From Calditrichaceae bacterium (GTDB lineage: Bacteria; Calditrichota; Calditrichia; Calditrichales; JBFXGD01), in NCBI GenBank assembly GCA_050173015.1, contig JBFXLE010000001.1, positions 256,001 to 320,000 of the forward strand: DNA of 64,000 bases. Reading direction: 5' to 3'. Shown one piece after another: positions 38,393 to 48,250 of the stretch (position 1 is the stretch's first letter; each line of letters starts with the position of its first letter). The notes under the pieces were generated by a model. It ran no database searches. It was not told the DNA's origin and worked only from the letters and a program-made list of their open reading frames with translations. The position numbers were made by a program, and so were the translations under genes.

Positions 38393-40927
38393 TTATAATT
38401 CAACCTGTATCGTCGTATAATAATTTCGGCCGGCGGCGGGATAATAATAATTAACATCGGACCAGCTATCATAATACCCCGCTGTCTCGTATTCTTCGTC
38501 AAACAGATTATTAATCTTTAATGTCAGGCGAAATCCCGGGAAGCGCGATGATTTCGGAAACCGGTAAGAAAACATGGCATTCGCTGTGGTAAACGGATCT
38601 ATTCTCCGTGATTCATTCTCTGTGTTATCCAGAAATTGTTTGCCCACATGCTGAATGGATAAGGATGATGTTAAATTTCGAATATCGGCCGAAATTTTAA
38701 TATTACCGATTAATTCAGGAAATCCGGCAATAGTTTTATCTTTAAAATCAACCGGAGTTGTTTCACCTGTTTCCCAGTCATATTCATTTTGTGTGAAATT
38801 CCCAAAATAATTCTGGCTAAACGCCAAATTACCTCCCATGGTAAAGTATTTACCGAGAGCCGCGTTCGCGGAAAATTCAATTCCCCTGTGAATCGTGCTT
38901 TCCGCGTTACCCTTTATCGGGAATCCGTCTTTATCGACTCCGCCAAGCGGAATAATTTCATTACGGAAATCCATCCAGTAAATATTTATAGCAGCTGACA
39001 GGACCGATGACCGGTAGCCGATACCAAACTCATAATCCAGCAATTCCTCGGGGTCAATATAAGGATCATCCCATTCTACTTTTGTCACATTCCCGTTGAC
39101 CCGGACAGTGTCACTTTTCGCGAATAATGGCGCTACTCCAAGGTCATCGGGACCGGCAAAGGCATCGTAAAGATCGTCATCCGAAGGCTCGCGTTGCGAG
39201 TAGGATACATTACCGTATAAATGAATCTTGTCATTAATCAGATAGGTGACGCCGATCCTCGGGCTCAAAAAATGGTAATCAAGCGAATAGGTGTTAATTT
39301 TATCGCCCTGAAACAGCGCGGTAGGCTGCTGTTCAAAATTCTGATTTTTATATTCATAAAGAAGATTACTCATAATATTTATTTTGGGTGAATAGTGGTA
39401 AAGATAATTATAGAAAGCGGAAAGATTTACCCTGTCACCTCTATATTCGTAATATTTACGGTCCGGATCATATTCAGACGGGATATTTTTAGCCCAGATT
39501 ACTTTTCCGAAATGATGACTGTCAAATGTATAGCCGGACACTCCCATTGTAAGATCACCGGAATCGAGTTTCCAGTCGGTTTTGCTGATGAGGCCGTATT
39601 GATTTTTTTGCACCCATTTCTGCCTTACCAGGTCTGTAGAATTGACCGTATAGTATCCTTCATCTCTGACCAATTTGCCGTTATGGGATTCGTAATAGTC
39701 CAGCGAATCCGCGCCAAATAGAGCCGGATCTGCTGTCAGATAAGGCGTCATGCCAAAAGCGGATAAATCTTTATTAACCTTATAATTTTCATAATATCCC
39801 TCACCCCGTATATAATAGGCTATGTTTTTCCATTCAAGTCTTTCTGAAAGCCGCCATTCATTACTAATTTCATAGTGAGGTTGGTTAAAGTCATCCACAT
39901 CATTCTTGTACGCGGATGCTTTATATTTTCGATCATTTTTGAGAATAGCTTCGGGCACTCCGTCCCAATCCGGATGGGTTCTTTCCGGCCCGCCGTAAAT
40001 ATTGATTTTTGTAACCATGTTTTCATCATAGCGGGCGGCGCCGATAAAATAGGCCCACAAATCAGAAGCAGAATTATCTCTGAATCCGTCGGAAGTAATT
40101 TTGGAGAACCGGCCGTAAAAGGAATAGGTCTCAGCCACAATACCCGATTTATATTCAGCCGAGAACTTACGTGTGTTATAGCTTCCGTAACCATATTGGG
40201 CGGAAATGTTGCGTTCTCCGGTAAATTGAGATGTATTGATGTTGATGGAGCCGCCGAATGTTGATGATCCGTAAACGCTGCTTCCAACACCGCGCTGTAC
40301 CTGTATATCCTGAATACTTTCAGCCAGATCGGGCATATCGACCCAGTAAACCTGATGGTCTTCAGGATCGTTCAGGGGGATATCATTAATCATTACGCCG
40401 ATTCTTTTCTGGTCAAATCCTCTTATCTTTATAAATGAATACCCGAGAGCATCACCGGTAAGTGAATACGAAAAAGTATTGGGAAGTTCACTCAGCATCA
40501 TCGGAATGTCGCTTGCGGTATAATTGTCTTCGATTTCGGCTCTCGTCACATTGCTGAAAGTGACAGGTGTTTCGCGTTCCCTGGCTCGGGTTCCGGAAAT
40601 GACAATGGTTTGTCCATCGAGAATTTCAGGTTGCAAATTAAAAATTATTCCGTTTAACGGTTTGTCTGAGATATTGAGCCGTTTTTTTGCCGGGGTATAA
40701 CCCAGGTAAGACGCGGATAGCATGTACGCGCCTTTTTCAGGGAGCGTCAGGTTAAAATATCCGGAATCATCGCTGGAGGCGCCAATGGACATCCCTTCCA
40801 CCAGAATATTGGCGCCAATCAAGGGTTCTCCGGTTTGGGCATCCTGAATATAGCCGGTAATTTGGACAGGTTGACTGTAAAGATAAGTAAAACTAAGTAG
40901 TAGAATGATAATCCTGGTGAATTTCAC
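38393..40927 (-). CDS. TonB-dependent receptor, probably for thiamine
   Basis: N-terminal CarboxypepD-like domain (GEPLIGANI), plug (IRGFDQ, QVQRGVGSS, GGSIN) and barrel end (INNLFDEEY...GRNYY). Downstream of a TPP riboswitch. Confidence 0.93.
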   Translation of the reverse strand: MKFTRIIILLLSFTYLYSQPVQITGYIQDAQTGEPLIGANILVEGMSIGASSDDSGYFNLTLPEKGAYMLSASYLGYTPAKKRLNISDKPLNGIIFNLQPEILDGQTIVISGTRARERETPVTFSNVTRAEIEDNYTASDIPMMLSELPNTFSYSLTGDALGYSFIKIRGFDQKRIGVMINDIPLNDPEDHQVYWVDMPDLAESIQDIQVQRGVGSSVYGSSTFGGSININTSQFTGERNISAQYGYGSYNTRKFSAEYKSGIVAETYSFYGRFSKITSDGFRDNSASDLWAYFIGAARYDENMVTKINIYGGPERTHPDWDGVPEAILKNDRKYKASAYKNDVDDFNQPHYEISNEWRLSERLEWKNIAYYIRGEGYYENYKVNKDLSAFGMTPYLTADPALFGADSLDYYESHNGKLVRDEGYYTVNSTDLVRQKWVQKNQYGLISKTDWKLDSGDLTMGVSGYTFDSHHFGKVIWAKNIPSEYDPDRKYYEYRGDRVNLSAFYNYLYHYSPKINIMSNLLYEYKNQNFEQQPTALFQGDKINTYSLDYHFLSPRIGVTYLINDKIHLYGNVSYSQREPSDDDLYDAFAGPDDLGVAPLFAKSDTVRVNGNVTKVEWDDPYIDPEELLDYEFGIGYRSSVLSAAINIYWMDFRNEIIPLGGVDKDGFPIKGNAESTIHRGIEFSANAALGKYFTMGGNLAFSQNYFGNFTQNEYDWETGETTPVDFKDKTIAGFPELIGNIKISADIRNLTSSLSIQHVGKQFLDNTENESRRIDPFTTANAMFSYRFPKSSRFPGFRLTLKINNLFDEEYETAGYYDSWSDVNYYYPAAGRNYYTTIQVEL

Positions 40928-41019
40928 TCGAACCTCCTTAACAAGAATGAAATTTTTTAAAGAGGTCCGTTCCTGATTTGAAGGAATTAAATGGATTAGA
41001 AAGAAGAAAAACTATCTCT

Positions 41020-41099
41020 CGTTTTCCTTCGCCGGTATTATCCGGATCAGGTTCAAAGGGTTTGTTCTCAGTCCCCAGTTTTAGGGAACACCCCCAACG
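41020..41099 (-). ncRNA. TPP riboswitch
   Basis: Minus strand CGTTGGGGGTG...CTGAGAACAAACCCTTTGAACCTGATCCGGATAATACCGGCGAAGGAAAACG has all canonical THI-box elements. Confidence 0.96.
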
Positions 41100-41107
41100 G
41101 ACGCGAT

Positions 41108-41136
41108 AATATATTACTCTTTTAATGGAATGTCAA
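41108..41136 (-). promoter_or_regulatory. Sigma70-type promoter of the thiamine operon
   Basis: TTGACA-17 nt-TATATT immediately upstream of the riboswitch. Confidence 0.8.
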
Positions 41137-41174
41137 ATACCAAGGGTGGTTTCTGACCTACGGTATTTGGAGAA

Positions 41175-41621
41175 TTATTCAGAATTTTTTAATTGATCTT
41201 TCATCGCCCGAATTTCTTTCAGACGCGCTTCAATTTCTTTTTCAAGATGATCAATCTGATTTTCCAGTTCAATCTTTCCTTTTTTCACCGGCTCATGTCT
41301 GGTTTGTTCAGACAGATCATTGACGGCATTCTGAAGAAGGTCAATCTGATTCCGGATATTTTTAATGTCATCAAGCAGGACCTGTAATGTCTCATGAGAT
41401 TTAAGCCCGTCAATATTGTTCTCCATCAAAAAGGGATATACTGTCTCTCCCAGGAGCGCCATTTTTTTCTCAAGAGCAACCTTATATTGGTGCAGCTCGA
41501 ATTTGATCTTCGCTAATTTGCTTAATTCTTCAGCTATGTCACGTAAATTGCTGGCATTTTTGCGAACCGTGTCATAGCTATCTTCAATTGATTTTTTTAA
41601 CTTATCGATAAAATCGGTCAT
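41175..41621 (-). CDS. Hypothetical coiled-coil protein
   Basis: 148-aa ORF with GGAGA RBS; charged helical sequence; no recognised family. Confidence 0.7.
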   Translation of the reverse strand: MTDFIDKLKKSIEDSYDTVRKNASNLRDIAEELSKLAKIKFELHQYKVALEKKMALLGETVYPFLMENNIDGLKSHETLQVLLDDIKNIRNQIDLLQNAVNDLSEQTRHEPVKKGKIELENQIDHLEKEIEARLKEIRAMKDQLKNSE

Positions 41622-41832: not shown

Positions 41833-43608
41833 ATGCAGTCCATAAAATCTGTTTTGGTTGTTGAGGATGATGAAGCTATACGTTTAGCTATGTCGCGTAT
41901 TCTTGACTTGACAGGTGAATATGAAGTTATTTTGGCTGAAGACGGTAAAGTCGCGTTAAAAAAAATGGAAAATTTTGTTCCTGATATGGTCATATCAGAT
42001 ATCAGTATGCCGGAGATGGATGGTATCGAGTTATGCAGGAAAATACGGGGGAATGAGATCACCAGGACTCTGCCATTTGTTTTCCTGACCGCTAAAAAGG
42101 AATTATTAGTAGAAGGAATGAAAGCCGGCGGCGATGATTTCATCAACAAACCGTTTAAGGTTGATGAAGTACTTGCAAAAATTGAAGCTATTTTTAGAAG
42201 GGTCGAAAATTCCAGACAGCAGGCCAATGAAATTAAGGGAAATCTCTCGGAGTACGCTTTTGAAGATATACTTGAATTGTGCCATCGTGAGAGTATCAGC
42301 GGTGAACTTACACTTCAAAAAAGCGGGGAAACGGGGATTATAAAACTCGAACGAGGCGATATAACAAATATTCAATATAAGGGGCTGGCAGATGATGAAG
42401 CCCTGGATATTCTGAGGGGGTGGGGAACTGGTATCTTTGTCATCAGGACCGGCGGGATGAAGCTGAAGTCGGGTTTTAAATTGTATAAACCGGATGAACA
42501 CGATTTAACCGAACCCGTTCAAATTGCCAGGAACACATGGTGGATAGGATACCGGAATCCTGATACGCTGCTTCAGATGAATGTATATCTGCGGCAATTT
42601 CCGAGCGGTGAAAAAAAAATCAATTATCTGATCGATCCCGGCGCGCCGGTTGATTTTCCTGTTATCTCAGAAAAAATTTCGAAATTGGTAGGGAGTATTT
42701 CTCATATACATTTATACAGTCTGAATAATCCGGATCCGGATGTGTGTATGAACAGCATGTTTATAAGAAAAGCAAACAGAAAGGCGATTTGTCTGACAAC
42801 TGAGGATAACTGGCGGTTGATCTCACATTATGAAATTAATCCGCAGAGCGTTAAGCTTACAAATACGTTTAAGGACTGGAAAATGTCTTTAACAACCGGG
42901 CATGACATACAATTTATACCGGCTCCGTTTGCGCCCGGGAAAGGGGCCTTTCTTATTTATGACTTAAACTCCCGCGTGCTTTTTACGGGGGATTTGTTTG
43001 GAGGAATCAGTGACGCGGGAAGAATAAATACACTGTACGCGGGAGACGAAGACTGGGAGGGAATCAGGGCATTCCACCAGTTTCACATGCCGGGTCGCAG
43101 AGCGATATCCCAAGTTCTGGATGAGATAAAGACGCTCAATCCTGCGCCTCTTATGATCGCGCCGCAGCATGGTAATATTATTAGAGGTTCGCTGCTAAAT
43201 GAATTCCTGGAACGTCTCTACTATCTTGATGTCGGCGTGGATCTGATTGGCAAAGAGAGCAAATCACCGATTGCGGAATTATGTATGGAAGCATCAAACG
43301 AGTTAATTGAAGAAGCGCTCTCGTTTATGACCAAAGAACGGATTATATCCAAGCTGAATTCAAATGCAAAATTGAATTCCATCTGCACATTTAGGGATGG
43401 ATTGATCGAAAAAATACACAACAGCCCTGATCTTGTTTTTGGAGAATTAAGTATGAGTCTCATTGAAAACGAACCCATCACGACAATGAATCACTTAAAA
43501 TCACTTGCATTGAAAATTGCGTTTGCCAAAGGCCTGCAGGCTCCGTCTCTGGATTGGGAAGGTACGGAAACCACACTAAAAAAATTACCTGATCATTTTT
43601 TTGATTAA
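41833..43608 (+). CDS. Response regulator: REC + DUF4388-like + ODP-like metallo-beta-lactamase-fold domain
   Basis: REC (VVEDD, ISDISMPEMDG, FLTA, KPF); linker IKGNLSEYAFEDILEL...SGELTL; ODP-like region (TWWIG, LQMNVYL, LIDPG, PDPDV, VLFTGDLFG, FHQFHMP, IAPQHG). Confidence 0.85.
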   Translation: MQSIKSVLVVEDDEAIRLAMSRILDLTGEYEVILAEDGKVALKKMENFVPDMVISDISMPEMDGIELCRKIRGNEITRTLPFVFLTAKKELLVEGMKAGGDDFINKPFKVDEVLAKIEAIFRRVENSRQQANEIKGNLSEYAFEDILELCHRESISGELTLQKSGETGIIKLERGDITNIQYKGLADDEALDILRGWGTGIFVIRTGGMKLKSGFKLYKPDEHDLTEPVQIARNTWWIGYRNPDTLLQMNVYLRQFPSGEKKINYLIDPGAPVDFPVISEKISKLVGSISHIHLYSLNNPDPDVCMNSMFIRKANRKAICLTTEDNWRLISHYEINPQSVKLTNTFKDWKMSLTTGHDIQFIPAPFAPGKGAFLIYDLNSRVLFTGDLFGGISDAGRINTLYAGDEDWEGIRAFHQFHMPGRRAISQVLDEIKTLNPAPLMIAPQHGNIIRGSLLNEFLERLYYLDVGVDLIGKESKSPIAELCMEASNELIEEALSFMTKERIISKLNSNAKLNSICTFRDGLIEKIHNSPDLVFGELSMSLIENEPITTMNHLKSLALKIAFAKGLQAPSLDWEGTETTLKKLPDHFFD

Positions 43609-43623
43609 TATGGGAGAACTGAT

Positions 43624-44688
43624 TTGCGAATCGCGTTAATCACCTCCTGGCCTATGGATGAAAGAATCGGCAGCGGAGTGGTGAGGATGTTTCGGGGGCT
43701 GAATGAGGGATTTAAATCCAACGGACATCAAAGTATCATTGTTCACCCTGATTATGATGAATCAGATCCGCTAAAGCTGGCGAATCGCAGACTTGCATAT
43801 AACCGGCGGCTGAAAGATAAAAAGTTTTCAGATTTTGATCTGATCATCGCCAGCGATTTTGACGGTTTTACATTGTCGGGTGAGGTACTGAACAGATTTG
43901 TCGTTATCAGCGCCGGATTAATGACCGAGTTAGTGGAATTTGAGGAAGGCAGTCAAAAAAAGATTATCAGGCATCTGTCCTGTCGGGAAAAACAAAACCT
44001 GATGCAGGCGCAAAAAATCATAACACCTTCCAAATACTGCGCCGATGCGGTAAACAGGTTGTACGGCATTTCTAAAGAAAAAATATATCAGGTTCCGCTT
44101 GGTATAAATTTTAATGAATGGGATCATTATCTTAATAATTTCAAAGTAGTGGCGAAGGAAGGCATCAATATTTTATGTGTAGCGCGTCAATACCGGCGTA
44201 AGGGAATCAATGATCTTCTCCTGGCGTTCTCTATGGTACGGAGAACGGTAACGAATGCTTCTTTGTCGATTGTAGGCGGCGGCCCGGATGAGGAACGAAA
44301 CAAACAAATCGTTCAGGAACTCGGGCTTAATGATTCGGTCAAATTTTACGGTGATGTACTCAACAGGGCAGTGATGGCGTCATTTTATAAAAAAGCTGAT
44401 ATCTTTTGTCTTCCCAGTTATCATGAAACCTTCGGACTAGTTTTTCTGGAAGCAATGGCCGCCGGGTTACCGGTTGTCGCCTACTCATCAACCGCTATTC
44501 CGGAATTAATTGCTTCCGAAGAAGGGATTCTTTGTGAAAAAGGAAATATTAACGCGTTAGCCTATCGTTTGATTGATCTTTGTAAAAATGTAACAAAAAG
44601 GGAACAATTAGGCGCGGGCGGCATCAAAAAAGCGCAGTTCTATAAATGGGATACCACATCAGCAAAAATTGCCGAAATATGCGGGTAA
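43624..44688 (+). CDS. Glycosyltransferase family 4
   Basis: GSGVVR, RRKGINDLL and ADIFCLPSYHETFGLVFLEAMAAGLPVV motifs. Confidence 0.93.
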   Translation: MRIALITSWPMDERIGSGVVRMFRGLNEGFKSNGHQSIIVHPDYDESDPLKLANRRLAYNRRLKDKKFSDFDLIIASDFDGFTLSGEVLNRFVVISAGLMTELVEFEEGSQKKIIRHLSCREKQNLMQAQKIITPSKYCADAVNRLYGISKEKIYQVPLGINFNEWDHYLNNFKVVAKEGINILCVARQYRRKGINDLLLAFSMVRRTVTNASLSIVGGGPDEERNKQIVQELGLNDSVKFYGDVLNRAVMASFYKKADIFCLPSYHETFGLVFLEAMAAGLPVVAYSSTAIPELIASEEGILCEKGNINALAYRLIDLCKNVTKREQLGAGGIKKAQFYKWDTTSAKIAEICG

Positions 44689-44727
44689 AGATCGGCCCGG
44701 ATTAAAGGAAGGGGATATATAATCTTA

Positions 44728-45153
44728 ATGGAACAAAATTTAACGATAAGTAAAAAGTTTGAATTTTCAGCCAGTCACCGTTATTGGAGAGAAGACTGGT
44801 CGGAGGAAGAAAATATCCGTCACTTTGGTCTTTGCACAAGCCCATATGGTCATGGCCACAATTATGAACTTCATGTGACCATCAGCGGAAAAATTGATCA
44901 GAGAACCGGCATGCTCATCAATTTAACGGATTTGAAAAAAACGGTCAAAACAATCATTGAGCAATTTGATCACAAGTTTTTAAATTTGGATACTCCTTAT
45001 TTTAAGGATATAATCCCGACGACCGAAAATATTGCCCTGGTGCTTTTTCGCTTAATTGATGAAAAAATTTCTGGACGCGATAATATCAGGCTCGAACGGA
45101 TCAGATTATATGAACGTCACGATCTTTACGCGGATGTCCGGAGGAGCATATAA
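44728..45153 (+). CDS. 6-pyruvoyl-tetrahydropterin synthase, type II signature (copy 1)
   Basis: FEFSASHRY, CTSPYGHGHNY (CX5HGH), TGMLINL, DHKFLN and TTENIA motifs. Confidence 0.92.
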   Translation: MEQNLTISKKFEFSASHRYWREDWSEEENIRHFGLCTSPYGHGHNYELHVTISGKIDQRTGMLINLTDLKKTVKTIIEQFDHKFLNLDTPYFKDIIPTTENIALVLFRLIDEKISGRDNIRLERIRLYERHDLYADVRRSI

Positions 45154-45572
45154 TGACTCCGGAAGTAAGTTTGAGCCGTTCATATATATTTAGCGCCGCG
45201 CATCGTCTTCACTCATCTGTTTTATCAGAATCTGAAAATATTGATGTTTATGATAAATGTAATAACTTTAACGGTCACGGACATGATTATACATTAGAAG
45301 TGACTGTCGCGGGTAAACCGAATCCCAATACGGGTATGATAATTCCTTTACCATTATTGGATGATTCCGTAAATTCGCTGTTAAAACAAATGGATCACCG
45401 GCATCTTGATATGGAGGTCGGATATTTTAATACTCATATATCCACCGGGGAAATTATTATTCAGTATTTATGGAAAGAACTGGAGAGAAGAATCCCTGAC
45501 GGAAAGCTGTATCACTTAAAGCTGTGGGAAACCAATAATAATTATTTCGAAATCGGAAAGGAGAATATATAA
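45153..45572 (+). CDS. 6-pyruvoyl-tetrahydropterin synthase, type II signature (copy 2)
   Basis: [18 protein letters not shown] (CX5HGH), TGMII, DHRHLD and LWETNNN motifs. Confidence 0.92.
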
Positions 45573-46141
45573 TGGAAGGAATGGAAGGGGCGGTAAAAAC
45601 AATTCTGCAGGATATCGGAGAAGATCCGTCCCGTCAAGGATTGGACAGAACACCGTTCCGCGTGGCAAAAATGTACCGTGAAGTGACAAAAGGGTACAAG
45701 ATGGATCCTGAAAAACTGATTAACGGCGCTATCTATGATGTTAAATACGATGAGATGGTTGTAGTGGCGAATATTGAATATTATAGTTTGTGTGAGCATC
45801 ATCTCCTTCCTTTTTTCGGTGTGGCCCATGTGGGCTACATTCCTAATGGTAAGGTTGTGGGACTGAGTAAAATTCCACGGCTTGTTGAGATGTTTGCAAG
45901 GCGGCTGCAAGTCCAGGAAAATATGACCCAGCAAATAGCGGATACGATCAATCATTATCTTAATCCGCAAGGAGTTGGGGTGGTCGTGGAAGGTCAGCAC
46001 ATGTGCATGATGATGCGCGGTGTGCAGAAAGATCAGGCCAAAATGATCACATCGGCAATGATTGGCGATTTTAAAGATGATGAAAAGACCAGATCGGAAT
46101 TCTTACATTTAATCAGGAGTGAACGTGTTACCGGTTTCTAA
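45572..46141 (+). CDS. folE: GTP cyclohydrolase I
   Basis: [34 protein letters not shown] and HMCMMMRGV motifs. Confidence 0.97.
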
Positions 46142-46835
46142 ATTAGCGATTGTAACCGGCGCCAGCCGGGGTATTGGCGCGACCATCTCAAGAGTTCTTG
46201 CCGAGCATGGCATGGGTGTGTTAATGCTGGCACGATCCGAGCAGGGATTGAGCGATGTTTCAAACTATATCCAGGCCGAAGGCGGATACCCGTTCGTGCT
46301 GCCGGTTGATCTGAGTCTGGCCTCTGATGTTGAAAAAGTGGTACGATTTGTGGATCAATTTGAAGGAGATTTGACAACTGTGGTACATAATGCCGGCATC
46401 GCCCGGGTAGGCAAAATTGAGAACCTGTCCCTTGCTGACTGGCGGCGGGTGCTTGATATGAATCTGACCGCGCCGTTTATGCTGACTCAAAAGCTTATCC
46501 CAAAAATGAAATCGGGGGGGCAATTTATTTTTGTGAATTCTGTCGCCGGAAAAACAGCTTTTCCTGAATGGGCGGCCTACAGCGCGTCAAAATTCGGTCT
46601 GAGAGCTTTTGCCGACACTTTGCGTCAGGAAGTGAGATCAAAAGGCATCCGTGTAACCACCATTTTCCCATCCGCGGTCGATACAAAACTCCATGAAGAT
46701 CTTCCCTATGACTGGGACAGGTCGAAGATGCTGAAATCGGTGGATGTGGCGAATGCGGTTGTATATTGCATTAAACAGCCGGCTTCAATGAATATCAATG
46801 AAATTGATATGGAAAATATGGCGGGAATATTCTGA
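46119..46835 (+). CDS. SDR oxidoreductase, candidate sepiapterin reductase (start may be the GTG at 46125)
   Basis: [17 protein letters not shown] and YSASK motifs. Overlaps folE in a pterin operon. Confidence 0.85.
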
Positions 46836-46844
46836 GATTCTGAT

Positions 46845-46883
46845 AAAAAAAAGCCCGGCGCGATTATGCGGCCGGGCTTTTTT
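46845..46883. terminator. Bidirectional terminator
   Basis: A8-GCCCGGC...GCCGGGC-T6 between the convergent SDR and trpB2 genes. Confidence 0.88.
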
Positions 46884-46885
46884 AT

Positions 46886-48250
46886 TTATGGTACCTTCGG
46901 AAGGTCCTTAATGGCATTCAGAGCCCGTTCAATCTCCTCTTCCGGGAGGACATGATCGATCAACTGTTTATCAAAATACCGGTCGTATGATGCCATATCA
47001 AAGTGCCCGTGTCCGCTGAGATTAAACAGAATGGTTTTCTCTTTTCCCTCTTCACGCGCTTTTATCGCTTCGTCAATGGCCGCTTTGACCGCGTGAGATG
47101 ATTCGGGCGCGGGAATAATACCTTCCGTGCGTGAAAATGTAATCGCCGCGTCAAATACTTCCAGCTGTTGATATGCGCGGGCGCGTATGATGCCCTCATG
47201 ATGAAGCTGACTCACTAACGGTGCCATCCCGTGATAGCGTAATCCACCCGCATGAATAGCCGGAGGAACAAAATCGTGTCCCAATGTATGCATCGCCACC
47301 AGTGGCGTTAATTGGGCGGTGTCTCCAAAATCGTACGCGTAAGGTCCGCGGGTAAGGGTCGGGCAGGAAGAGGGCTCAACGGCGATGATATCAATATTTT
47401 TACCGTTTATTTTATCACGGACAAAAGGAAACGACAGACCGGCAAAATTACTTCCGCCTCCCACACAACCAATGACGACATCGGGATAATCATTAACCAT
47501 CGCCATTTGTTTTAAGGCTTCTTCACCAATAATGGTTTGATGCATCAAGACATGATTCAAAACGCTTCCGAGTGAATAGTTGGTATCCTCACGGGTGGCT
47601 GCTTCCTCAACCGCTTCGCTGATAGCGATTCCAAGACTTCCCGGTGAATCGGGATTCTTTTCAAGGATCTGTCTGCCGGAATTGGTTTCAGTACTGGGAC
47701 TGGGAACGACCGTCGCCCCCCATACATGCATCATGGATCTTCTAAACGGTTTTTGCTCGTAACTTACTTTTACCATAAACACTTTGCATTCAAGACCGAA
47801 ATAATTACAGGCGAGAGCAAGCGCGCTGCCCCATTGGCCGGCTCCTGTTTCGGTGGACAAGCGTTTGATGCCCGCTTGTTTATTGTAATAAGCCTGAGCG
47901 ATGGCCGTATTTGGTTTGTGACTTCCGGCAGGACTGACACCTTCGTATTTATAATAAATGCGGGCAGGTGTTTTAAGTGTTTTTTCCAGGCTTTTTGCTC
48001 TTATTAACGGTGACGGTCTCCATTGAAGATAAATATTTAAGATTTCTTCCGGTATCGGGATAAACTGATTTGTGGAAACTTCCTGTTCGATCAATGACAT
48101 CGGAAATAGAGGCGCTAAATCCTGCGGGCCGATCGGTTGTCTGGTACCCGGATGTAAAGGTGGTTTAGGCGGTGACGGCAAATCCGCGCAGATATTGTAC
48201 CATTCCCGTGGTATATCATCTTCTTTTAGTATTATTTTGATTTTTCCCAT
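46886..48250 (-). CDS. trpB2: TrpB2-type tryptophan synthase beta (stand-alone)
   Basis: [49 protein letters not shown] and NLSGHGHFD motifs; no trpA nearby. Confidence 0.95.

Follow-up and report, generated by a model that had tools for sequence, protein, structure and literature searches.

We judge it moderately probable that the stretch of DNA analysed here (the window, 64,000 nucleotides from a Calditrichaceae bacterium) encodes a tetrahydrobiopterin (BH4) operon of the cyanobacterial type, accompanied by a glycosyltransferase, GT4, that is a candidate for a second family of pterin glycosyltransferases. As had been proposed earlier, it comes from a non-phototrophic host, the closest protein (92% identical) being assigned by name to a Calditrichaceae MAG. 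Cyanobacteria and green sulfur bacteria contain pterin glycosides in abundance; to our knowledge, the function of these compounds is still unclear and the BGluT/PGT enzymes are the only family known to make them. The five-gene cassette described here, from a non-phototroph and both compact and transferable, would allow a direct test of BH4 glycosides outside the phototrophs. We observed the gene families, the subtype of the 6-pyruvoyl-tetrahydropterin synthase (PTPS), the correspondence of its two copies with the N and C domains of the fused cyanobacterial protein, and the conservation of the gene order, and these are described below.

Layout of the locus and proposed pathway

All five genes named in the initial annotation (GT4, PTPSa, PTPSb, FolE and SDR) were confirmed on the + strand, and the family models agree with their assignment (Table 1). 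As had also been claimed, the last four overlap, PTPSa with PTPSb and PTPSb with FolE by 1 nt and FolE with SDR by 23 nt, and the array ends in a terminator-like structure: a strong hairpin at 46847-46883, flanked by an A-run and a T-run and visible in the sequence within the 50-nt space that separates the SDR gene from a convergent TrpB-like gene, folds with a dG of -24.3 kcal/mol (z -3.57 versus shuffles, with 2 of 200 shuffles folding equally well). A simple consensus terminator scan missed this hairpin and returned 2 sites elsewhere, against 6.7 expected. The GT4 gene starts 15 nt after the end of a gene encoding a receiver and an ODP-like domain (RR-ODP-like), which is a conserved upstream partner and the first gene of the array. 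A six-gene operon, comprising RR-ODP-like, GT4, PTPSa, PTPSb, FolE and SDR, is the best explanation of this arrangement.

Table 1. Features of the pterin locus, in positions of the window
Feature	Position	Strand	Description
RR-ODP-like gene	41833-43608	+	Receiver + DUF4388/PATAN + ODP-like metallo-beta-lactamase-fold domain; C-terminus of ~140 aa beyond these
GT4	43624-44688	+	354 aa, TTG start; Pfam Glycos_transf_1 + Glyco_transf_4
PTPSa	44728-45153	+	Type II 6-pyruvoyl-tetrahydropterin synthase paralog (predicted); Pfam PTPS
PTPSb	45153-45572	+	Type II PTPS paralog (predicted); Pfam PTPS
FolE	45572-46141	+	GTP cyclohydrolase I; TIGR00063
SDR	46119-46835	+	Classical NADP-type short-chain dehydrogenase; adh_short
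Intrinsic-terminator-like hairpin	46847-46886	.	GC-rich; A-run before, T-run after (bidirectional layout)

In the pathway that we propose, (i) FolE would convert GTP to dihydroneopterin triphosphate; (ii) PTPSa and PTPSb, the split version of the cyanobacterial dual-domain enzyme, would form a heteromeric type II PTPS and turn this compound into 6-pyruvoyl-tetrahydropterin; (iii) the SDR, with NADPH, would reduce the side-chain carbonyls to give a tetrahydrobiopterin-type pterin; and (iv) GT4 would glycosylate a hydroxyl in the side chain of this pterin, with an NDP-sugar as the donor. The enzymatic role of the SDR, and the acceptor, sugar and stereochemistry of the GT4 reaction, are what we infer.

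A split PTPS pair, FolE and the SDR

PTPSa and PTPSb score 122.6 and 92.8 bits, respectively, against Pfam PTPS. Both window copies carry the C-x5-HGH motif and retain the His of the SHR motif, the D-H pair and the C-terminal E; for the catalytic Cys, the Asp-His pair and the pterin-anchoring Glu we assume the roles given in the literature on the rat enzyme. In the PDB, PTPSa matches human PTPS (3i2b, E 3.4e-32, versus about 2e-7 for QueD) and PTPSb matches rat PTPS (1b66, E 4.5e-35, versus about 1e-6 for QueD), the QueD structures compared being 4ntk and 4ntm (E 1e-6 to 2e-7 with the window copies); in the aligned parts, both copies are 40-50% identical to the mammalian proteins. According to PMC5041015, C-x5-HGH is the signature of PTPS-II, C-x3-HGH that of QueD and E-x2-HGH that of PTPS-III. 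Motif, residues and PDB similarity support the prediction that both copies are of the BH4 type (PTPS-II), and the type II assignment made initially, as distinct from QueD and the folate type, stands, with the motif in both copies and E values of 1e-32 to 1e-35 for mammalian PTPS against about 1e-7 for QueD. The likeness to 1b66 and 3i2b extends to the CX5HGH motif, the Zn-binding His residues, the Asp-His pair and the C-terminal Glu; however, the mammalian homohexamer is built from a single type of chain, whereas here there are two paralogs, 33% identical to each other and always adjacent.

Kong et al. are said to have described, in 2006, a dual-domain bacterial PTPS with an N-type and a C-type domain in one polypeptide. 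PTPSa and PTPSb are the counterparts of these two domains in the fused cyanobacterial PTPS: in the PTPS tree, all 32 'a' copies and the Arthrospira N-domain lie on one side of a branch with SH-aLRT 96, and all 'b' copies and the Arthrospira C-domain on the other. The two are encoded side by side in all 48 Calditrichota genomes that have them, and the pair was split into two ORFs in each of the 20 Calditrichota loci read. Among relatives, the Cys of PTPSa is kept in 19 of 21 sequences and replaced by Y in the other 2, and the catalytic His of PTPSb is replaced by Y or F in 7 of 21.

FolE scores 256.7 bits against TIGR00063 (cut-off 181.6). PF01227 has no other match in the genome, which is 97.5% complete and in which FolE2 (PF02649) was not found; because this FolE is the sole copy, its presence in the cluster is no evidence of a dedicated pathway.

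The SDR scores 170.1 bits against adh_short, and its translation contains TGxxxGxG and YxxxK; its best NCBIfam model, PRK07454, gives 207.9 bits, under the cut-off of 234. The special resemblance to the Chlorobium enzyme that the initial annotation suggested did not materialise. Sepiapterin reductase 2bd0 aligns over the full length (E 2.2e-25) but ranks only 25th of 470 SDR matches in the PDB, behind clavaldehyde dehydrogenase and many FabG entries (best E 5.8e-35), and is no closer than many of the latter. Chlorobium tepidum is a BH4-glycoside maker outside the cyanobacteria (PMC5683033); its tepidopterin derives from L-threo-BH4, formed through 2bd0, to which CtPGT adds GlcNAc.

It is the genomic context that points to a pterin role for the SDR. 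Its gene comes next after FolE in 17 of the 20 Calditrichota loci, and 10 of the 14 metagenomic loci with pterin linkage show the same succession; in a cyanobacterial sample, 23 of 61 genomes have an ortholog, which is beside folE in 17 and beside the PTPS pair in 2 (19 of 23 together). The family is linked to folE/PTPS across three phyla. A preprint describes the cyanobacterial counterpart as being without a pteridine-reductase motif. We infer that the SDR is a sepiapterin-reductase-like last enzyme of the pathway, and it would be a candidate for a bacterial sepiapterin reductase, an enzyme still to be proven; its family also stands beside folE in cyanobacteria. The FolE, type II PTPS and SDR route put forward in the initial annotation is consistent with all of this: the PTPS-II motif, the closeness to mammalian PTPS, the presence elsewhere in the genome of separate QueD/queCEF genes and FolB, and the linkage of the SDR.

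GT4 and its association with pterin genes

GT4 scores 130.6 bits against Glycos_transf_1, and its structure model (pLDDT 91.9) has a GT-B fold. The nearest Foldseek folds are BshA (6n1x, E 1.1e-20), MshA (3c48, E 1.4e-20) and sucrose-P synthase. BshA, MshA and EpsE-like models are also among its best NCBIfam matches, but all score far under their cut-offs (BshA 102.3 versus 273.7; MshA 76.5 versus 462.5). All three nearest folds are those of GT4 enzymes with small-molecule acceptors, and BshA and MshA are retaining enzymes of the GT-B type whose acceptor is small and soluble. Since the fold is of the retaining GT4 type, an alpha-glycoside would be the most likely product.

A kinship with the cyanobacterial pteridine glycosyltransferases, implied in the initial annotation, did not hold, and we rejected GT4 as a member of the BGluT/PGT family. 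The Arthrospira PGT, which was identified in the genome by means of the published cloning primers, has the same Pfam domains as GT4, and the size of GT4 fits the 355-360 aa or so of the PGT family; the similarity between the two amounts to 30% identity over about 70 residues (E 3e-6), covering the donor-binding motif only, with no full-length relationship. When the Arthrospira genome was searched with GT4, 18 other paralogs were matched and the PGT was not among them. The BH4 glucosyltransferases 5zer, 5ze7 and 9v0l are absent from the 60 PDB matches of GT4 at E <= 1e-5, and no BH4 glucosyltransferase occurs among the top Foldseek hits listed (ranks 1-50, with additional chains of the same entry left out). 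Two PDB entries designated 'glycosyl transferase', 7fg9 and 8x3q, resemble the Arthrospira PGT (E 1e-26) and are unmatched by the window GT4 at E <= 1e-5. By sequence comparison, GT4, our candidate pterin glycosyltransferase, belongs to a clade apart from BGluT/PGT, and if our reading is right this separation would make it a second, non-orthologous pterin glycosyltransferase family.

The linkage of GT4 to pterin genes in relatives, which the initial annotation had made a point to check, was borne out, and it is this neighbourhood that supports a pterin as the acceptor of GT4. GT4 is present in 18 of 86 Calditrichota genomes, all of which also have the PTPS pair, and in 16 of these 18 genomes it immediately precedes PTPSa in the same orientation, an adjacency that is kept even though the GT4 proteins are only 39-46% identical. 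At E <= 1e-40, GT4 is absent from 30 of the 48 Calditrichota genomes with the PTPS pair, so it is an accessory part. In one genus, a secreted protein of 388 aa occupies its position.

Unrelated high-GC metagenomic contigs carry the same association. The order GT4-PTPSa-PTPSb(-FolE-SDR) was found in 13 of the 66 metagenomic GT4-homolog loci whose downstream flank is 600 bp or longer, and in one further locus with a short flank. The GT4 homologs of the pterin-linked loci are about 33% identical to GT4, and the GC content of these loci is 66-72%, versus 42% here. In a sister GT4 clade, a Pterin_4a gene (pterin-4a-carbinolamine dehydratase, PCD) lies directly upstream in 18 of the 70 loci in which the flank is long enough. 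No pterin gene stands within the flanks in a third clade, whose 30 members include Chloroflexi and Gemmataceae homologs. The Calditrichota and the metagenomic PTPS-linked GT4 clades were not recovered as one clade, and forcing them together costs 20 lnL units (p-AU 0.092).

Comparison with known pathways and alternative readings

The locus shares with the cyanobacterial BH4-glycoside pathway a FolE that is 56-60% identical, the two PTPS types found there as the domains of a fused protein, an SDR ortholog (33-40% identical to that of the window) that is usually beside folE, and the expected outcome, a glycosylated reduced pterin made by a GT-B enzyme of about 355 aa with Glycos_transf_1. There are also important differences: (i) in Arthrospira, a producer of BH4-glucoside (PMC4133829), the pathway genes are spread over at least three contigs, whereas here they form one operon; (ii) the Arthrospira PTPS is a two-domain protein of 290 aa whose N-domain has lost both the Cys and the His, whereas here the PTPS is split and PTPSa keeps both residues; (iii) the BGluT/PGT enzymes of Synechococcus and Arthrospira are not orthologous to GT4; and (iv) the host here is non-phototrophic.

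In a reading that we consider unlikely, the products of PTPSa, PTPSb, FolE and SDR supply an aromatic amino acid hydroxylase or another oxygenase with free BH4, or with a stereoisomer of it, as cofactor. GT4 would then be merely co-transcribed and act on another acceptor, such as a small thiol-like metabolite, a lipid or an envelope glycan, which would agree with its being unrelated to the known PGTs and missing from 30 of 48 PTPS-pair genomes, with the secreted protein that replaces it in one genus, with the 30-member clade of homologs that have no pterin neighbour, and with BshA, MshA and EpsE-like proteins as its best NCBIfam or fold matches. Those matches, however, lie far under the cut-offs (e.g. 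102 bits versus 273.7), the adjacency persists in 16 of 18 genomes despite a GT4 identity of 39-46%, the five-gene order reappears in high-GC bacteria whose GT4 is about 33% identical, and another GT4 clade sits behind PCD; such a recurrence in three clades is not expected of chance co-location. Quite improbable, in our estimation, is a product other than biopterin, with the SDR serving as a dihydropterin or pteridine reductase for recycling and a 6-lactoyl, sepiapterin-like or other 6-substituted pterin then being glycosylated. Cyanopterin is a precedent, being built on 6-hydroxymethylpterin and showing that pterins other than biopterin can be substrates of PGT-type enzymes (PMC3546692); the SDR, moreover, has no specific similarity to a characterised sepiapterin reductase and scores under every NCBIfam equivalog cut-off, and in relatives the PTPS pair shows drift at its catalytic residues. 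Against this, both window copies keep every residue checked and are 40-50% identical to mammalian PTPS in the aligned parts, and the same SDR family accompanies folE/PTPS in cyanobacteria, the phylum of the cited BH4-glycoside producers (PMC4133829).

Close to refuted is the reading in which the PTPS genes work in the synthesis of queuosine (QueD-like) or of folate (PTPS-III, as a FolB bypass), as ordinary housekeeping around the sole folE. No GTP cyclohydrolase I other than the cluster FolE was indeed found in the genome, and COG0720 members are often mis-assigned among the PTPS, QueD and folate roles (PMC5041015). But neither copy has C-x3-HGH or E-x2-HGH, and the E values for QueD structures are poorer by 25 orders of magnitude than those for mammalian PTPS; the genome has its own canonical QueD (C-x3-HGH) in a queC-queF-queE cluster on another contig, and FolB is encoded elsewhere, so that neither queuosine nor folate needs the PTPS genes of the cluster.

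Under the reading that we prefer, a BH4 operon with a candidate pterin glycosyltransferase, the pterin can also serve the long-form aromatic amino acid hydroxylase encoded elsewhere in the genome (NF010657, 695 bits versus a cut-off of 346). PCD is encoded in the genome too; it is a weak marker of BH4, since it occurs without the PTPS pair in 30 of the 37 genomes of three Calditrichota families (f6-f8). In the family where GT4 is commonest (f3), the hydroxylase is absent from all 26 genomes, and this, together with the conserved receiver/ODP-like gene, hints at a role other than that of textbook cofactor. A broader proposal, possible but doubtful as a whole, is that GT4 is the founding case of an independently recruited second pterin glycosyltransferase family across non-phototrophic phyla (Calditrichota, Nitrospinae-like and high-GC soil lineages) and that the glycosyl-tetrahydropterin of Calditrichota is not mainly a hydroxylase cofactor, but acts with the receiver/ODP-like protein in oxygen- or redox-responsive signalling or protection, the pterin perhaps being a ligand or reductant of the ODP-like domain.

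The RR-ODP-like gene encodes the upstream sensor through which, in the initial annotation, the operon was possibly under redox-linked control. It occurs in 38 of the 86 genomes of the phylum, only in families that have the PTPS pair, and is adjacent to the cluster by coordinates in 25 of these 38. Its product scores 133.7 bits against Pfam ODP (cut-off 27.2), 93.8 bits against Response_reg and 24.8 bits against DUF4388, just under the cut-off of 25; Pfam identified no DNA-binding domain in it. The product matches the ODP structure 6qrq with E 3e-21. In the alignment to 6qrq and 6qnm, three His of the solved ODPs, which we take to be metal ligands by analogy with flavodiiron proteins, are replaced by N, P and P, and the GD and QHG motifs are kept.

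The gene array and its pterin core

Six co-directional ORFs occupy 41833-46835 of the window (G000:C1:256001-320000, G000 being the Calditrichaceae genome and C1 its contig). The first two intergenic gaps measure 15 and 39 nt, and the next three junctions overlap by 1, 1 and 23 nt. The hairpin that follows the last gene has a predicted fold of dG -24.3 kcal/mol (z -3.57); a consensus terminator scan did not pick it up. ORFs, protein families and hairpin together bear out the five-gene operon with an end terminator proposed in the initial annotation, and the RR-ODP-like gene directly upstream should be counted as part of the array. The genome itself (4.34 Mb, 54 contigs) is 97.5% complete; the nearest database protein, 92% identical, carries the name of a Calditrichaceae MAG, and behind it come proteins of 40-48% identity labelled Calditrichaeota or Caldithrix.

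Features of the array, its flanks and related loci
Feature	Location	Description
RR-ODP-like gene	window 41833-43608	591 aa; response-regulator receiver, weak DUF4388 (PATAN) match, ODP-family metallo-beta-lactamase-fold domain
GT4		glycosyltransferase, 354 aa
PTPSa, PTPSb		PTPS-family proteins, 141 and 139 aa
FolE		GTP cyclohydrolase I
SDR		short-chain dehydrogenase, 238 aa
Terminator-like hairpin	window 46847-46883	GC-rich; A-run 5', T-run 3'; within the 50-nt spacer before the convergent TrpB-like gene
TrpB-like PLP enzyme	window 46886-48250 (-)	NF009057, 763 bits
TonB-dependent receptor and coiled-coil protein	window 38393-41621 (-)	divergent from the operon; coiled-coil protein of 148 aa
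Split FolE match	L084 8914-9126 and 10138-10467; L085 6494-6706 and 7718-8047	two high-GC metagenomic clusters
Protein in the place of GT4	L023 7325-8491 (-), genome G020	388 aa, signal-peptide-like start
PCD-GT4 with POT-family transporter	L058 1241-4353 and related loci	PCD-linked clade
Aromatic amino acid hydroxylase	contig C5, L004 1423-3168	long form, partial Biopterin_H match only

The TrpB-like gene converges on the operon, so that the terminator is common to both, and adjoins the cluster in some relatives only. Blastp places the TonB-dependent receptor beside the cluster in 9 and the coiled-coil protein in 14 of 20 Calditrichota loci.

Both PTPSa and PTPSb contain C-x5-HGH, given as the PTPS-II signature in a passage of PMC5041015. 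Their E-values are 3e-32 to 5e-35 with human and rat PTPS and only 1e-6 to 2e-7 with QueD structures. G000 has a third COG0720 gene, with C-x3-HGH, within a queC-queF-queE cluster on contig C3, and it also encodes FolB, so the window copies are not needed for queuosine or folate. The window's FolE is the sole GTP cyclohydrolase I found in G000 (one PF01227 match, and no FolE2 found there) and must therefore supply folate and queuosine as well. We regard a BH4-type core as well supported and very probable. In the two high-GC metagenomic clusters L084 and L085 the FolE match is broken into two pieces about 1 kb apart, which suggests that an intein or a mobile gene has inserted into folE.

A search with PTPSb (E <= 1e-12) matched 48 of 86 Calditrichota genomes, every one of the 48 with two adjacent copies; by family, the pair is present in f1 (2/2, including G000), f2 (1/1), f3 (25/26), f4 (10/10) and f5 (10/10), and in none of the 37 genomes of f6-f8. 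A single- or dual-domain PTPS reportedly serves bacterial BH4 synthesis, to go by the title of Kong et al. 2006. In Arthrospira platensis two PTPS domains share a single 290-aa ORF, and related Arthrospira strains produce a BH4 glucoside or xyloside (PMC4133829). In a tree of 66 sequences, comprising Calditrichota pairs, metagenomic pairs, two split pairs from the cyanobacterial phylum, the Arthrospira domains and the QueD of G000, one branch (SH-aLRT 96) separates 32/32 'a' copies and the Arthrospira N-domain from all 'b' copies and the C-domain. By this phylogeny, the pair would be an ancient two-subunit enzyme. Both window proteins retain all residues checked (SHR His, Cys, HGH, Asp-His and the C-terminal Glu). 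Among relatives, PTPSa has Tyr for Cys in 2/21, PTPSb has Tyr or Phe for His in 7/21 (L017, L019 and five other Calditrichota loci in the alignment), and the Arthrospira N-domain is without both Cys and His. In the presumed heteromer, such active-site losses would represent complementary decay, and the residue drift fits a heteromer in which some sites need not be active. In L017 and L019 the catalytic Cys of PTPSa and the His of the Asp-His pair of PTPSb are both gone.

The short-chain dehydrogenase

In the PDB the SDR is matched best by clavaldehyde dehydrogenase and by a Thermus SDR (E about 6e-35), and its best NCBIfam model, PRK07454, falls 26 bits short of the cut-off. The likeness to the Chlorobium sepiapterin reductase that had been suggested for this protein is not supported as a specific one: that enzyme (2bd0) ranks 25th among the PDB matches, at E 2.2e-25. 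The assignment follows instead from gene context, which is strong. The SDR lies 3' of FolE in 17 of 20 fetched Calditrichota loci; of the remaining three, two belong to one genus without an SDR there and one reaches the contig end. The SDR likewise follows FolE in the high-GC metagenomic clusters, and the best Arthrospira homolog, 35% identical, lies directly 5' of folE. Orthologs were present in 23 of 61 sampled genomes of the cyanobacterial phylum, 17 of them beside folE, 2 beside a split PTPS pair and 4 with neither within 1.5 kb. That this protein is the reductase of the pathway is likely.

The idea of a folE-adjacent SDR as a sepiapterin reductase is, as far as a preprint's account of it goes, already in print, as speculation and not as a result: Picciano and Crane (2019) are cited there as having speculated on this role for an SDR adjoining GTPCH I in Synechococcus PCC 7335, and the preprint's authors doubt it on motif grounds (10.1101/2021.03.07.434255). 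In L137 and L138, both from the cyanobacterial phylum, a split PTPSa-PTPSb pair lies directly 5' of the SDR ortholog, over which the open frame extends for 409 aa in L137 and 291 aa in L138; one of the two may therefore encode a PTPSb-SDR fusion.

A candidate pterin glycosyltransferase outside the known family

A reference pterin glycosyltransferase (PGT) was located by scanning a named genome collection with the part shared by two cloning primers (PMC4133829). The single match falls in A. platensis PCC 7345, within an ORF of 359 aa whose first ten residues agree with the CY-007 forward primer (PMC4133829). This protein matches solved structures titled 'UDP-glucose:tetrahydrobiopterin glucosyltransferase', namely 5zer and 5ze7 (E 2e-127) and 9v0l (8e-124). 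The initial annotation had implied kinship between GT4 and the cyanobacterial pteridine glycosyltransferases, and this does not hold: GT4 aligns with the Arthrospira PGT over 70 residues of the donor-binding region only (30% identity, E 3e-6); a search of the complete Arthrospira genome with GT4 recovers 18 other genes of the GT4 type (best E 1.9e-14) and misses the PGT; and BH4 glucosyltransferase entries are absent both from the 60 PDB matches of GT4 at E <= 1e-5 and from its listed Foldseek hits (ranks 1-50, repeat chains of an entry left out). A donor-segment match and these absences rule out kinship with the known PGTs. The structure model is confident (pLDDT 91.9), and the folds closest to it are those of BshA, MshA and sucrose-phosphate synthase, retaining GT4 enzymes that act on small soluble acceptors; with a retaining GT4, the anomeric configuration of the product would be expected to be alpha. 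An atlas search returned generic GT4 names only. Judged against the Arthrospira PGT and the solved BH4 glucosyltransferases, GT4 shares a superfamily with the PGTs and lies outside the PGT family.

A GT4 ortholog (E <= 1e-40) is present in 18 of the 86 phylum genomes (f1, 2/2; f3, 16/26; none in other families), all 18 of which have the PTPS pair. In 16 of these GT4 immediately precedes PTPSa, with both genes on one strand, so that the linkage which the initial annotation's reading requires is kept in relatives; the other two are fragmented assemblies with GT4 and the PTPS genes on different contigs. The PTPS pair occurs without GT4 in 30 of 48 genomes, and GT4, an accessory gene, is an insertion that separates PTPSa from the RR-ODP-like gene. 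A different protein takes its place between these two genes in one genus (L023, genome G020).

Metagenome contigs scanned with an alignment of 16 GT4 homologs yielded 80 loci that were kept (29-37% identity, 55-75% GC). PTPSa-PTPSb lies directly downstream of GT4 in 13 of the 66 loci whose downstream flank reaches 600 bp or more, followed in the window order by FolE and SDR where the flank is long enough; in one further locus the flank, of 305 bp, covers the first part of PTPSa, for a total of 14 loci and 11 distinct GT4 sequences. A gene for pterin-4a-carbinolamine dehydratase (PCD; Pterin_4a) lies directly upstream of GT4 on the same strand in 18 of the 70 loci whose upstream flank is 330 bp or longer, and about 0.8 kb from GT4 in one more. 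Three clades stand out in the GT4 tree: Calditrichota proteins (support 100), PTPS-linked metagenomic proteins (100) and PCD-linked proteins (98). That the association with pterin genes recurs in all three is the main argument for a pterin acceptor. A fourth group (n=30) has no pterin gene within its flanks, and its neighbours, called by a greedy ORF procedure that is rough on high-GC DNA, are mixed (GGDEF, M28 peptidase, POT transporter, Usp and DUF2207). This unlinked group takes in proteins named Chloroflexi and Gemmataceae, and proteins named Nitrospinae are placed both beside the Calditrichota clade and within the PCD-linked one. The tree does not unite all PTPS-linked GT4s in one clade; joining them by constraint costs 20 log-likelihood units, with a p-AU of 0.092, so that a single origin of the PTPS linkage is neither shown nor excluded. 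In L058 and related loci of the PCD-linked clade, eight in all, PCD-GT4 is followed by a POT-family peptide transporter.

On balance we lean, by a modest degree, towards GT4 being a pterin glycosyltransferase; if so, it represents a family distinct from BGluT/PGT. A literature search that left most subscription journals outside its reach found, among the papers listed, nothing on pterins in Calditrichota, this GT4 clade or a link between PCD and glycosyltransferases.

Use of the pterin and the RR-ODP-like partner

Among the genes of G000 are a PCD and an aromatic amino acid hydroxylase of 581 aa that scores 695 bits with NF010657 (cut-off 346); no NOS was found. A cofactor role for the pterin in this hydroxylase is plausible in G000. 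As an explanation of the cluster, the co-occurrence holds only in part: the hydroxylase is present in 15 of 86 genomes, all of PTPS-pair families (f1, 2/2; f4, 9/10; f5, 4/10), and in 0 of 26 in f3, the family where GT4 is commonest, and the cofactor role cannot account for the cluster in general. PCD, found in 51 of 86 genomes, is a weak marker of BH4, with 30 of the 37 genomes of families without the PTPS pair positive. The C-terminal half of the hydroxylase, about 280 aa, has no family match.

The RR-ODP-like protein has no DNA-binding domain in Pfam, and about 140 residues at its C-terminus match no family. Compared with solved ODPs, the three His of 'H-x-D-x-D' and 'H-F-x-H' are Asn, Pro and Pro, and 'GD' and 'QHG' are retained. 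These His we take to be iron binders, by analogy with flavodiiron proteins, and di-iron oxygen binding may be absent from this protein altogether. With the His replaced and no DNA-binding domain, a redox sensor controlling the operon is not established. The gene is the most constant partner of the cluster: the ODP and C-terminal part occur together in 38 of 86 genomes, all of them in families f1, f3, f4 and f5, and by hand comparison of coordinates 25 of these 38 have the gene at most 2 kb upstream of GT4 or PTPSa and on their strand. Some form of functional partnership between this protein and the pterin pathway is likely.
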